From assembly GCA_964016885.1 (NCBI GenBank), contig OZ024740.1, positions 324,136,001 through 324,200,000 on the forward strand: a stretch of 64,000 bases of DNA. The letters run 5' to 3'. The notes beneath the pieces are model-generated. The model saw nothing but the letters and a program-made list of their open reading frames with translations, did not search any database and was not told the origin of the DNA. Made by a program: the position numbers and the translations under genes. Positions 7,781 to 14,344 of this stretch are shown here, piece after piece; the stretch's first letter is position 1; each line of letters opens with the position of its first letter. Source of the stretch: Eledone cirrhosa (Eukaryota).

Positions 7781-7829
<49 letters not shown>

Positions 7830-8014
7830 GATAAATCTACCAAGAGTTTACGGTAGTGTCCAATCCGTATGAAGAACTCAATGTATTCCGGATATCATGG
7901 AAAGAAGAGATGTAATGAAAAATCACTTTCGGTGAAAGATAAACGGTATAAGGAGTTAAGATAAAATATTAAACAAATAATGAATAAACAATTCCTTATA
8001 TTAAACAAAAAAAG

Positions 8015-8168
8015 TTCATTATTTAACGATCGTTTCTAGGATATATATGTGTTAGAATTGGCATGCATATTCAACAGATCTATGTACAAAATTATACAAA
8101 ATTATACAAACTATCAAGATTAAATATACATACCAACACATATATACGCCGTCTTCAGAAATAATGAA
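8015..8168 (-). ncRNA. Type I hammerhead ribozyme with expanded stem II (pLTR copy)
   Basis: Minus strand: UUCAUUAUUU-CUGAAGA-[115 nt hairpin]-GAAA-CGAUCG-UU-AAAUAAUGAA. 10-bp perfect stem I, palindromic stem III. Confidence 0.8.
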
Positions 8169-8815
8169 GTATATTTATTGATAATAACAACAATTCAAAA
8201 TTTCAGGTCCGTTTGGGAACAAAATTGACCAATGAAAACACAAAGGGTTAAATGCAGTTCGGTGTGTGTATATACATGTAAAACCCTTACACATATTTTA
8301 CAAAAATGTATGTATAATTTGTATACGCATACTAAAAGGATGGATGCAAATACAAAATTTCAAGGTTAATGTCTCTGTAAGTTTATAATGCACAGATAAG
8401 ATGCGTATTGACACAAGTATGAAATTAAGTATATAAATATATTTTTTCATACTCACACATATCCGTACAATCACACATACACGCGCGTATATGCATAAAT
8501 ATACACATAACCACGAACATACAAACACACACACACCCCCACTCACATTTATATATGTGGATATAAAATCATAAGCACATGGATATTAATTCACTCACAT
8601 AAACACTGGCACACACATTTTTAGATCAAGATACAGAAATTAGGTGGGAGGAGGGGGGGGGGGAGAGGTCAGTATTCAACGGTCTGAGCAGACTGCCTAA
8701 TATAGATGTATCTATAAACTAAGAAAATAAAAATAAAAAATAATAAATAAACATTAAAGAGGAAAGAATAGAAAGAAAAAAGAAAAAAGAAAAAAGAAAA
8801 AAGAAATATATCAAG

Positions 8816-8851
<36 letters not shown>

Positions 8852-9068
8852 CACATACATATATATATATATATATATACACACACATATATATATACAA
8901 TATACATATATATACACATAGACACACACACACACATACATAAATATACACACATATACAAACACATACATACATATACACACATCCACACTAAGAACAT
9001 ACATACACACACATATATAAACATATACATATACACACATACATACATATACACATATACATACAAAT

Positions 9069-9113
<45 letters not shown>

Positions 9114-9490
9114 TACATATATATGTATATACACGTACATATACACACACATATACATATAATCACACATACTATATAGATACACATATATATAACCACA
9201 CACATACATGCACATATACAACACTTACATACTAATATACATACAGATATACACATACATAGCTATATATACACACAAATATATACAGACTTACATATAT
9301 ACATACAGACAAATACTTACGCATCTATATATCGGTATATACATACAAACACCACTACACTATCACACAACTTAGACATACAAAGAGAAAGGTATATACC
9401 TATACACACATACATATACAAATAGAAAAACATATAGATATATATATATATATATACACACACACATATATATACATATATATATATAAC

Positions 9491-9523
<33 letters not shown>

Positions 9524-9743
9524 CATATACACATACACACACATACACATACATACATGTACACACACATAGAAATATATACGCATACACACATACACAC
9601 ATACATATAAAGTCATACACACACATACACCTACACGAACATACACATACACATATATAAAGATATATATACACACACACACACACACAACACATACACA
9701 CATACACATATATATAAAAAAAATAAATAATAAAGATATATAC

Positions 9744-9800
<57 letters not shown>

Positions 9801-10147
9801 CATATATATATACATACACATACATACACACATACATAGACATACATGTACATACATACACGTACATCGATATACATACATATATATATACACACATAGA
9901 CATATACATACATACACACACAACTTACATACACACATATATATACATGTATATTCATACATAGAATTAGATATATAATCATACATACATATGCACTTAC
10001 TTATACTCATATATACAAATACATACGCATCCATATATGCGTATATACATAAAAAAACCACTACAACCTCACCTAACTCAGACATACAAATAAAAATAAA
10101 AAGGCATATGTATATACATATATACACGCATTAATAGAGATATATAT

Positions 10148-10211
<64 letters not shown>

Positions 10212-10447
10212 ATTCATATATATATATATATAGATACCCACACACACATACCACCATAAATACACATACAAACACCCACATATACATATATATACACACA
10301 TATATATATATATATATATACACACACATAAAAAACAGACATGCACATATATATATATTTTTTTACACTTATATATATACATATTATATACACATACACA
10401 ACCTCACATATACACACATACACATAAGTTATATTATAATAATAAAA

Positions 10448-10502
<55 letters not shown>

Positions 10503-10588
10503 CATATATATATATATATATATACATATAAACATATACATACATATATACACACATACGAATATAGACATATATTCACACATAGACA

Positions 10589-10632
<44 letters not shown>

Positions 10633-10848
10633 TACATATACACAGAGACATATATACACACTCACATATATATGTGTGTGCACACACACATATATACACA
10701 CATACACACATATACACATAAACACATATATGTGCATACATGCACACACACACATATATCCACATAGATACGAAGATAGACATATAAATAGAGAGACATA
10801 CATATATATACAACACACATACACACACATACATACACACACACATAC

Positions 10849-10882
<34 letters not shown>

Positions 10883-10888
10883 CTATAT

Positions 10889-10935
<47 letters not shown>

Positions 10936-12287
10936 CATACACATACACATACACACATTCACATACACATACATATATACATGCATATATACACATATAT
11001 ACATACATACACACACTCATATATACACACACAATCTTACATTCATATTTGCATGCGCATATATGTATTTTTATATTCAGATATAAATACCCAAACCTAT
11101 ATATACACCTACCTACATATATATTCATACATACACGCTTACAAATACAGATGATAATAGTATGGGGGAAAGGGGGGGTTTGGAGAAGGGGATCATAGTA
11201 AATATATGTTTCAAGAAACATAGAATATTTTCCGTATCTTGATCCAATGTATGTTTCTACATAGTTTCAGTGTTAGGAAATACAATAAACAAGAACTAAG
11301 GCAAAATCTATGCATCTCAAAATAAACAAGTATACCATTAATTATATGTTAACTAAACCAAAGATAGTTAACATATTGATTTCTAAGGTGTAAATTAGTT
11401 AGGTTTATAATATTTGAAGCAGAATTTTGAAGTTAAATAGTAGTAGAGTATTAATTATAGTATAACTAAATTAAAGTTAATAACGTTATGGTATCAATAT
11501 TAGGAAATGAATTTAGTAATAGGGAAAAAACAAATAAAATAAAGTATTACATCGGTAGTAGAATATAAATTATAGGTTAACTAAATTAAAAATTATATAT
11601 TTATTTCTATAGTATATGTTAATTAGGTATATAATACATAAAACAGATATTGTATTTTATCAATAGCATAATATAATTATATGCAAATAGAAATCAAAAT
11701 TAATACATATACATATACATATACATACACATACATATATACATATATATACACATATATATATATATACATATATACTCATATACATACATACACACAT
11801 ACACATACACATATACATATACATATTTTTTTCAAAAAATTGCATAGAATATATTAACTAGGTATATATCCAAAACACATCCCATTCTATGATTACATGA
11901 CATTCTGCAATTCGTCTGTATAAGGATACTAATTTTAAGCAAATTAAAATTAAATTTTTAGGTTGATTAAAATTAAAACCAAATTATAAATATATTTCTA
12001 AAATGTATATTAATTAGGTCTATAATACTAAAAATTATTTCTCTGTCATTGGATACACGATATTATTTTGTTATATTTTATCTGTAAAAGAATTATAATA
12101 AAAGGTTTAAATAAATTAAAATTAATCTATAAATTAAATTACTAAGTATATATTAGTAATATTTAAAGGTTTTTCACAATTTATGATTACATAATATTTT
12201 ATATTCTCATCTGTAATAAAATTTTAATTAAATTAAATTTATAGGTTAACTAACATTTAAATTAAATTAATTTCTAAAATAATGTTA

Positions 12288-13849
12288 TTAATTAGGTTTA
12301 TAATATTTAAATGTTTTTTTTAGTTTATGATTACACGATATAATTAATTCCTGTCGTTTATTTAATAAGATATCCTTAGACTTCATTATTTCAAATAGTT
12401 CTTGGGAACATAATCTACATTCATTTCTATTATTTTGATAAGGGGTGGCTCTTTTGAGCACACTCCAGGTCAAATCATATTCTATATTCTTATTTTTATA
12501 ACTATTGATTTTTTCTGCTAGAGATGTTGTATTAGCCAGTGCGGCATTTTTAAAACTATGCTTGTGGGTATTAAACCTTGTCTTAAAATTGTTAGAGGTA
12601 GCTCCTATATATGAGCAAATAGAATCTTTAGTTTTAACATTACATTTATAGACTATGTTGTTAACAAGACAATTCCCTTTTAATGGGCAGTTTGCTTTGT
12701 TTCTACAGTTACATCCTTTCGTTAATTCTGTATTTGAGGAGATATTATGGTTAATTTGATGTACTGGTGGTATACTTATGGTTTTCTTACATTTATATGC
12801 ATTATGGGCACTTATATTTTGTTTTACGTTATTTGTTGTAGAGTATGAGAATTTAACTGTAGACCTATTTAAGATTTGATGGTATTTGTGGTTTGGCGGG
12901 AAGTTTTTCTCAAGGATATAAAAAAATTTTTTAGCAATATTATCCTTAACTTGTAAATTAAAAGGAGCATTATACCAAGTAACCCGTCTATTACGGTTTC
13001 TATGTTGTTTATTATTTTTATTATTTTTATAGGTTGTATCGTGATTTTTACTAGGAGGATTAATGTTAATGATCTCACCACAACTATTTTTAGTTATATT
13101 TGTAGATTTAGGTGTTTTATCCTTTTTATTAGGAGTTTTATTATTAATATTTATTAGAGTTGTATGATGAGTAGTTTTTTGAGAGTTACTATACTTTATA
13201 TTAGAAGATTTGGTATTTTGGGGTATAGTGTGGGTGGCATTTAGGTGTGTACTTTTCATTTGGTGTTTGTTGGTAATATTATGTTGTATGCTTTCAGTAT
13301 TTTTAGTAGAAGGTATATACTCTAATCTATTTTTGTGGCCACTTCTATCTAGAGCTTCGTTATAGAAGGTCGCATTTTTATCAAATACATCTTGGTTAGA
13401 AGAAAGGTTAGAAATTCTAAGTGATATATTATATGCAAGGTTTTTAAGGATAGATTTAGGGTGATTAGATTGTGAGTGTATGTAATGTAAGTTTTGGTTA
13501 GGTTTATGGTAAGGTTGGTAGATACCCGTAGCTAAATCTAAAGTTATATCTAGGAAATTTACTACTTTACTTGTTTTTTCAAAAGTAATATTAAGATTAT
13601 AATAGTCTTTAAGGAAAGTTCTAATATGTTTTTTGTTTTTTTCAATTTCTGAAAGGCTAAGGTTGTTAGAAAGAAGAAGACAGTCATCACGATATAAACC
13701 ACCTTTGAGGTGGGGAAAAGAGGCATTTATGTTGAAAAGGAGAAAGAGGCCCACAAGATCAGTAATTTGGGCGGAATCGCTTGAACCCATAGTAATATCA
13801 AAAAGATTACTATATGTGTTTCTGGTCCAGTATTCATTCTGAAATTCAA

Positions 13850-13850
<1 letters not shown>
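12288..13850 (-). CDS. Penelope-like reverse transcriptase (C-terminal half) + GIY-YIG endonuclease, N-terminally truncated
   Basis: Frame stays open upstream of the listed ATG (IEFQNEYWTRNTYSNLFDITMGSSDSAQ). Contains FDITMGS, GLYRDD catalytic motif, NFLDITL, YIHSQSNHP, TWYNAPF, CNCRNKANC (CxCx5C), IVY...YIGAT..FKTRFNTH (GIY-YIG), CRLC, LLNKRQE, CNH. Confidence 0.93.
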
Positions 13851-13904
<54 letters not shown>

Positions 13905-14073
13905 ATTTGTATGTATATGTGTATATGTATGTATGTGTGTATATGTATATGTTTATATATGTGTGTGTATGTATGTTCTTAGTGTGGATGTGTGTATATG
14001 TATGTATGTGTTTGTATATGTGTGTATATTTATGTATGTGTGTGTGTGTGTCTATGTGTATCAATAAATATAC

Positions 14074-14227
14074 TTCATTATTTCTGAAGACGGCGTATAT
14101 ATGTGTTGGTATGTATATTTAATCTTGATAGTTTGTATAATTTTGTATAATTTTGTACATAGATCTGTTGAATATGCATGCCAATTCTAACACATATATA
14201 TCCTAGAAACGATCGTTAAATAATGAA
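14074..14227 (+). ncRNA. Type I hammerhead ribozyme with expanded stem II (inverted pLTR copy)
   Basis: ttcattattt (14074-83), CTGAAGA (14084-90), GAAAC (14206-10), GATCGTT, aaataatgaa (14218-27). Reverse complement of 8015-8168. Confidence 0.8.
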
Positions 14228-14272
14228 CTTTTTTTGTTTAATATAAGGAATTGTTTATTCATTATTTGTTTA

Positions 14273-14344
<72 letters not shown>

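Follow-up and report, generated by a model that had tools for sequence, protein, structure and literature searches.

A 64,000-nucleotide (nt) window of the Eledone cirrhosa genome (GenBank assembly GCA_964016885.1, contig OZ024740.1, positions 324,136,001 to 324,200,000; coordinates below count from its first base) contains a Penelope-like retroelement between positions 7827 and 14281. The locus is probably a copy of recent date, dead on arrival, from a Penelope-like family of the Hydra clade in which the 3' region has expanded to about 4.1 kb. Its architecture, the identity of its inverted arms, its truncation and its abnormal lengths are directly visible at the locus. The insertion, real, young and truncated, is unusual for its abnormally long 3' region and ribozyme stem.

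Architecture and truncation of the insertion

On the plus strand, the locus begins with a (TG)n(TA)17 target run (7781-7826) that adjoins the 3' end of the main copy. This copy comprises 6,022 nt on the minus strand, with its 3' end at 7827, and is followed by an inverted piece on the plus strand (13849-14281) and by a second (TA)n target run (14282-14341) at the 3' end of the inverted copy. The main copy terminates in a 134-nt extension, or tail (7827-7960, minus strand), which occurs in this copy only, contains no detectable start of an open reading frame (ORF) and reaches 134 nt past the end of the inverted copy. Adjacent to the tail lies a minus-strand segment (7961-8183) resembling a pseudo-long terminal repeat (pLTR). 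The inverted piece has two plus-strand parts: an exact copy of this pLTR-like segment with a second hammerhead motif (14059-14281, motif at 14075-14226), and a copy of a microsatellite segment (13849-14061) corresponding to the main copy from about 9114/9124 to 8912. The two parts overlap by three bases of microhomology and skip about 727 nt of the main copy, so the inverted piece is not a contiguous pLTR copy.

The inverted arms are identical over 223 nt in the pLTR/ribozyme part (7961-8183 and 14059-14281), as an earlier sequence-only reading had judged by eye, and over 196 nt in the degenerate microsatellite part (8912-9107 and 13866-14061). Their sole difference is the length of the (TA)n run at the upstream end, 19 units versus 14. 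Because there are no differences over about 416 nt outside this one TA run, which bounds divergence at roughly 0.7% by the rule of three, the data support a young insertion, as the same reading had proposed, barring homogenisation of the arms by conversion or assembly. The inverted microsatellite copy is not a chance resemblance, since with source and copy masked, the best other exact match to the 196-nt piece in the window is only 46 nt of pure TA, and that to its non-TA part only 21 nt. A blastn search found no other copies of the element within the window. At a related locus (L009, one of 16 described below), an inverted segment of 758 nt is likewise 100% identical. The window also contains at least seven copies of a repeat resembling a short interspersed nuclear element, at about 5475, 7162, 7365 and 14571 on the plus strand and 17629, 31896 and 63352 on the minus strand, and three of them lie close to the element's ends. 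We take this repeat to be a common one, typical of Octopus.

The coding part of the main copy is a stop-free minus-strand frame (13847-12288) of 519 codons plus a stop. It contains motif B (13790), YRDD (13694-13683) and the thumb of a reverse transcriptase (RT), then an N/T/K-rich linker insert (about 13325-12996), CxCx5C (12713-12687), GIY-YIG (12653-12603), CxxC (12419-12408) and CxH (12335-12327). In an alignment with 13 relatives, the frame sets in just upstream of RT motif B, and motifs 1, 2 and A are not part of it; 5' of 13847 it merely continues into microsatellite. In all 76 relatives of at least 650 amino acids (aa; median length 706), the match to the first residues of the frame starts inside the protein, at a median of 294 residues (range 137-341). 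The missing N-terminal piece was not found in the tail or the rest of the window by tblastn with these 76 relatives or by a profile search. Having lost some 294 residues from its N-terminus, catalytic motif A among them, the copy cannot encode a working RT or move itself; it lacks the complete RT, the full set of catalytic motifs and the start of an autonomous copy. The frame of about 520 codons once described as intact is indeed open throughout, yet it is 5'-truncated: uninterrupted, not intact.

Such a structure may have arisen by two-sided target-primed reverse transcription at (TA)n, in which one template jump occurred and both products were 5'-truncated. An intact donor elsewhere would supply the RT/GIY-YIG protein, which would nick a (TA)n run and prime complementary DNA (cDNA) on both strands. 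The first cDNA would extend for 6.0 kb through the tail, the ribozyme, the microsatellite and half of the ORF before halting inside the RT gene. The second would start 134 nt further upstream on the RNA, copy 223 nt, jump about 727 nt at the 3-nt microhomology, copy some 200 nt of microsatellite and halt at a TA run, and the two truncated ends would then be joined head to head. In vitro, both strands are nicked and extended by a Poseidon protein, which also begins synthesis at internal positions of its RNA (PMC11167929); this would fit two 3' ends lying 134 nt apart. Head-to-head truncated copies, tails and microhomology deletions are known for Penelope elements (PMC3846280), and for one Hydra family, Penelope-13_HM, a 5'-truncated copy in inverted orientation has been noted (PMC8557442).

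Hydra-clade assignment and the hammerhead motif

The Hydra clade has been defined by a C-terminal GIY-YIG endonuclease without CCHH, CxCx5C, CxxC plus CxH, a hammerhead and insertion into (TA)n (PMC8557442). Since its motifs, its sequence similarity and a limited tree all agree with this definition, assignment of the element to the Hydra clade is supported, which bears out what the sequence-only reading had proposed from CxCx5C, GIY-YIG without CCHH and the (TA)n target. A single ORF places the RT before the C-terminal GIY-YIG endonuclease, and the insertion lies in (TA)n on both flanks. The query was compared with 266 relatives from two overlapping searches with the frame (120 of 300 matches plus the best 150 of 10,079) and with at least 120 proteins (120 of 132) akin to another Penelope-like element of the window, which is of CCHH type. 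Among the matches listed, 175 of the 266 relatives share CxCx5C (residues 379-387 in the query) and 207 share YRDD, versus none of the 120 CCHH-type proteins in either case. The CCHH pattern is absent from the query, although two cysteines, the second unconserved, do stand eight residues apart between VY and YIG; it occurs in none of the 266 matches listed and in 45 of the 120 comparison proteins. The CxxC..CxH pattern at residues 477-507 flanks conserved E and N and recurs in 217 of the 266 matches listed, with C477, C480, E483, N496, C505 and H507 invariant across 14 aligned proteins. The region in which Hydra elements have RWK and DKT motifs but neither an N-terminal CxC nor an IFD falls in the missing part of the ORF, where aligned full-length relatives show RW[KR] and DK[TS]. 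Other clades fit less well: the query has neither the CCHH of Neptune, Nematis and Penelope/Poseidon nor the additional CX2-5CxxC of Neptune and Nematis, and its endonuclease is C-terminal, whereas that of Naiad and Chlamys is N-terminal to the RT. Because the Pfam match to GIY-YIG is weak (E 0.0068, below the cut-off), this part of the assignment rests on alignment to relatives; Pfam returned no family for the 518-aa frame or for its RT part.

Over 170 aa of RT and thumb, the query is 49% identical to a protein (P0012) that agrees by eye with the printed Hydra-1_Amil protein, and the 3' end of another related locus (L014) agrees by eye with the printed Hydra-2_Amil consensus. Comparison with the published sequences of Hydra, Naiad and Chlamys was visual only and lay outside the tree. 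Against the 120 CCHH-type proteins, the query gave matches in the endonuclease region only, at E 0.001 or worse. A tree was built from 67 rows: the query, 41 Hydra-like and 25 CCHH-type proteins, chosen by length from the lists. It splits the Hydra-like and CCHH-type sets with a Shimodaira-Hasegawa-like approximate likelihood ratio (SH-aLRT) support of 100, for a Hydra-like set picked by similarity to the query and without named Poseidon, Nematis or Naiad references. The query's neighbours are three proteins, one of them from Argonauta hians (support 88). An in-frame N/T/K-rich insert of about 95-110 aa follows the RT thumb, and the linker from thumb to WxNxP measures 119 aa versus a median of 25 in the 169 of 266 matches listed that have both motifs; the closest relatives, including the Argonauta protein, carry shorter inserts at the same site.

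The second Penelope-like element of the window is a 5'-truncated remnant of the CCHH/CX2-5CxxC type, lying between (TA)n runs at 41343-42300 on the plus strand. It has a GIY-YIG frame at 41413-41754 (Pfam E 1e-4), followed within a few hundred bases by what looks by eye like a short hammerhead (about 42081-42121), and offers an in-genome example of a short 3' region. A further minus-strand frame of 146 aa (49500-49940) has no Pfam support; presumably it resembles the C-terminal end of an RTE-type long interspersed nuclear element. Two 100-N gaps lie near 42.8-43.1 kb of the window.

A putative type I hammerhead occupies 8016-8167 on the minus strand, with its core at 8158 and a predicted cut near 8025, mapped from the identical copy at 14075-14226, whose core lies at 14084 on the plus strand. 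The motif has a perfect 9-bp stem I, a complete core and a 10-nt palindromic stem III, which agrees with the type I hammerhead expected near the 3' end of Hydra elements, and it is the only sense-strand ribozyme core between the stop codon and the end of the element. Stem II spans 115 nt, versus 12-24 nt in the 11 related loci measured; swollen by TA/TG-rich sequence, it folds as a 43-pair hairpin (-40.5 kcal/mol; region z = -5.4). Palindromic stem III lets animal Penelope hammerheads act as dimers (PMC4209133).

Size and origin of the 3' region

The stop codon and the hammerhead core are separated by 4,130 nt. In a GTDB scan, 16 related loci were found, which belong to other families (33-46% identity) and document the typical pattern only, not sister copies. 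The hammerhead lies 91-212 nt past the stop in 13 of them (11 hammerheads by a strict filter and 2 by a relaxed search; the stop used for locus L006 may be premature), two others end before the stop, and one has no hammerhead within 420 nt. The distance in Eledone is about twenty times that of these relatives, although assemblies may under-represent microsatellite-rich 3' regions. At E 1e-5, the element showed no DNA similarity to the 16 loci among the matches listed. The loci themselves (L001-L016) lie on contigs filed as bacterial genomes or symbionts, nine of them from one assembly; the Hydra-type elements on them mostly have hammerheads and in some cases (TA)n or inverted copies, and the contigs are most likely animal DNA binned into bacterial or symbiont genomes. 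Typical Hydra elements are shorter than 3 kb with a short 3' region, a descriptive and not a defining feature, which the 6,022-nt main copy does not share.

Three minus-strand segments can be distinguished in this region. The distal one (8184-8818) is a mixture of unique sequence, a degenerate CA-rich patch (8430-8620), a G run and an A-rich repeat (8714-8830), and lies mostly within the stretch skipped by the inverted copy. Next comes a 2.2-kb degenerate compound (TA/CA) microsatellite (8819-11033) of single polarity (CA 371, TG 17 on the plus strand), with 12.4 alternation breaks per 100 nt. The proximal segment (11337-12287) consists of decayed tandem duplicates of an ORF-end unit, two of which enclose a 124-nt compound microsatellite (11703-11826). 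Tandem arrays cover about 57-60% of 8184-12287 with the A-rich block included, and strict purine-pyrimidine alternating runs cover 47% of it versus 18% in the rest of the window. The earlier description of about 4 kb of mostly CA/TA repeat therefore holds for length but only marginally for "mostly", as about 1.7 kb is sequence other than tandem arrays. No complex 22-mer is repeated exactly within the 2.2-kb array, which argues against recent slippage, and no higher-order repeats were found there. Furthermore, alternation is broken 17 times within the copied 196 nt, so the array predates the insertion, and was degenerate by then, at least where copied. An imperfect 22-nt inverted repeat with G runs that brackets the array (8621-8642 and about 11226-11247), picked post hoc, was rejected as not clearly above chance, since 12 of 300 shuffles reach it, or 5 of 300 after masking. 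Elsewhere in the window, tandem arrays occur at 36161-40294 and 22134-25081 (a 16-nt unit repeated 259 times, and 2.9 kb of nearly pure TA/TG, respectively) and at 45231-45947 and 54578-56566 (a 95-nt unit repeated 7.5 times at 98%, and a GGT-rich array).

A unit of about 140 nt, which takes in the final codons of the ORF, the stop and the bases that follow it, recurs in 11337-12287 in three clear copies and one marginal copy. Their scores are 125, 108, 100 and 74, whereas 300 shuffles gave 62 +/- 6 with a maximum of 89, and scores elsewhere in the window are 65-69. The duplicates are 79-83% identical, apart from gaps, and when 10% random substitution was simulated 2000 times, a frame of equal length remained open in only 0.15% of runs. 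The duplicates therefore decayed while the ORF of the lineage was under selection. The proximal kilobase is element-derived and has been carried for a long time by an active lineage, together with its 124-nt microsatellite. The 2.2-kb array may likewise belong stably to the family, having lengthened through tandem duplications and expanding repeats in a 3' region whose length would be little constrained. Both stem II of the ribozyme and the linker from thumb to WxNxP are expanded as well as the 3' region. The proposal that the element itself carries and spreads kilobases of microsatellite thus stands for this insertion and, over a long lineage, for the proximal kilobase with its 124-nt repeat; its extension to the whole family is tentative. 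Likewise, presence of the microsatellite at insertion is direct for 8912-9114 and follows by parsimony for the rest.

Several observations weigh against a family-wide, element-grown 3' region with a working ribozyme. The fourth ORF-end duplicate falls within the null range, and AT-richness inflates identity. The inverted copy vouches only for 8912 to about 9114 of the array. The window is itself rich in compound microsatellites, as its 18% of alternating runs indicates, and captured host DNA would look alike; 4 of 13 compared arrays outside the element and its flank (15914-16297, 16610-16847, 40404-40945 and 42261-42854) are about as degenerate or more so. Among the matches listed, the closest long relatives are only 34-48% identical and the closest fragment 63% over 148 aa. 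As for the ribozyme, the predicted minimum-energy fold mispairs the core, with a core-open fold 3.3 kcal/mol higher. Rfam gave no matches in the whole window at gathering thresholds and, at E up to 10 over 7800-8400, 12 matches that all score far under gathering and include no hammerhead, which counts against ribozyme activity.

The alternative that survives best, although we consider it unlikely, is that a single donor copy picked up the 2.2-kb array and its neighbours from host DNA, through read-through or a template jump, and that they vary between copies. Copies of Pen1_Av that are 90% identical but have unrelated spacers provide a precedent (PMC3846280), compound arrays are common in the window, and 8184-11336 has no coding-part homology among the matches listed. 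Capture accounts less well for a proximal kilobase that is element-derived and bears a microsatellite of its own, or for a ribozyme whose stem II is itself swollen by TA/TG. Three separate CA-rich blocks also share polarity, a weak point, since the odds of this by chance are about 1 in 4. Seen at a single locus, an array common to the whole family and a piece of the host genome taken up by a single donor would look the same.

It is far less probable that only the part found in the inverted copy is original and that most of the array was added later, either through slippage or when a second element inserted into an internal (TA)n run. The inverted copy does end at a TA run (about 9108-9124), beyond which there is no direct witness, and internal (TA)n runs are targets for such elements. 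However, an insertion with a divergence bound of about 0.7% contrasts with an array that has 12.4 breaks per 100 nt and in which no complex repeat is exact. The array is also uniform in polarity, and there is a single sense-strand ribozyme core between the stop and the end. Scarcely any weight attaches to a retained spliceosomal intron, absent from the translated RNA and kept in the transposed RNA. Penelope-like elements do retain introns (PMC8557442), and the sense strand offers one strong pyrimidine-tract/AG site at 8719 and five GTAAGT hexamers in the array. Yet one such acceptor in 4.4 kb falls within the window background (0.16-0.33 per kb), and GTAAGT is no commoner than other single-change repeat variants (8, 6 and 5). 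The skipped segment of about 727 nt has no GT-AG or AT-AC ends in any register, which rules it out as an intron. Least credible of all is that assembly fold-back or gene conversion, rather than youth, explains arms that are 100% identical in a repetitive region, since the inverted piece is discontinuous, (TA)n-ended, different in TA-run length and of a known Penelope architecture, and the ORF remnant is open.

Taken together, the preferred reading of a recent insertion from a family with an overgrown 3' region leads to a broader, tentative picture that we hold at somewhat less than even confidence. An active Hydra family of about 7 kb would deliver, with every full copy, more than 2 kb of compound microsatellite, whose many internal (TA)n runs are the family's own target sites, and would thereby seed microsatellites and multiply its landing sites. 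Its hammerhead would be active with the 115-nt stem II in place and would probably dimerise by way of the palindromic stem III. Because copying begins at the 3' end, the microsatellite would be copied before the ORF and spared by 5' truncation; most copies should then consist of microsatellite and ribozyme without coding sequence and appear in annotations as simple repeats. Should the whole family carry the array, retrotransposition would supply part of the compound microsatellite load of such genomes, and this part would escape repeat libraries, since consensus sequences tend to be interrupted at such arrays. The size range known for Hydra elements would also widen more than twofold, and a natural hammerhead with a very long stem II would be added. 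If the array is captured host DNA, the rotifer Pen1 spacer would gain a second example, from a different clade. The understanding of Penelope-like elements is unaffected in either case.

Comparison with known systems

Listed Hydra families measure 1,080-3,045 bp, and 26 of 27 have a (TA)n target (PMC8557442). Members of the clade such as Hydra-1_Amil, Hydra-2_Amil and Penelope-13_HM share with the Eledone element an RT followed by C-terminal GIY-YIG, CxCx5C and CxxC/CxH, with no CCHH, as well as the type I hammerhead, the (TA)n target and, in Penelope-13_HM, the inverted 5'-truncated copy. Unlike listed Hydra elements, the Eledone element measures 6,022 nt although truncated, and would reach about 6.9 kb if whole; it also has a long N/T/K-rich linker and 4,130 nt between stop and ribozyme. 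Its 115-nt stem II compares with short stems and loops of up to about 10 nt, by eye, in the published Hydra table. The published octopus family Hydra-1_Obim from Octopus bimaculoides (2,507 bp; PMC8557442) also inserts in (TA)n and has, by eye, the same DSA-x-I-x-DL form of RT motif B. By eye it is nevertheless another family, with a short ribozyme and a 3' region of about 205 nt (hand count on the printed consensus). In Octopus vulgaris, an annotation reports 336 recently active Penelope-like insertions (PMC13282606); its main text does not use the name "Hydra", and its supplements may hold the family described here. No Hydra element with a multi-kilobase microsatellite 3' region, or with so long a stem II, was found in the literature searched, which included few subscription papers and lay outside Repbase and Dfam.

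The closest structural parallels come from the rotifer Adineta vaga (PMC3846280). As in the Eledone element, a long spacer precedes the 3' pLTR in Pen1_Av, and the N-rich Pen2a, Pen3 and Pen4 have N-rich in-frame inserts, one of them partly copied in inverted form on the 5' side; a tail and deletions at microhomologies are further points in common with these rotifer elements. The Pen1_Av spacers differ in being 0.9-1.5 kb long, copy-specific and attributed to host capture, and in the available text these rotifer elements are not assigned to Hydra, nor are their spacers described as microsatellite or ORF-end duplicates. Microsatellite seeding by retrotransposons is the topic of PMC3812793 and PMC6050309, and in the shrimp Litopenaeus vannamei, Penelope copies more than 98% identical have moved with their internal simple sequence repeats (PMC7878876), so the idea of an element that carries and spreads microsatellites is not new. 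The shrimp case was established by comparing copies, whereas the evidence here comes from one locus. Hydra elements in octopus, microsatellite-carrying Penelope elements in shrimp and kilobase-scale spacers before the pLTR in rotifers are thus already published, and the roughly 2 kb of simple repeats carried along at this insertion represent a modest twist on the shrimp and rotifer cases.

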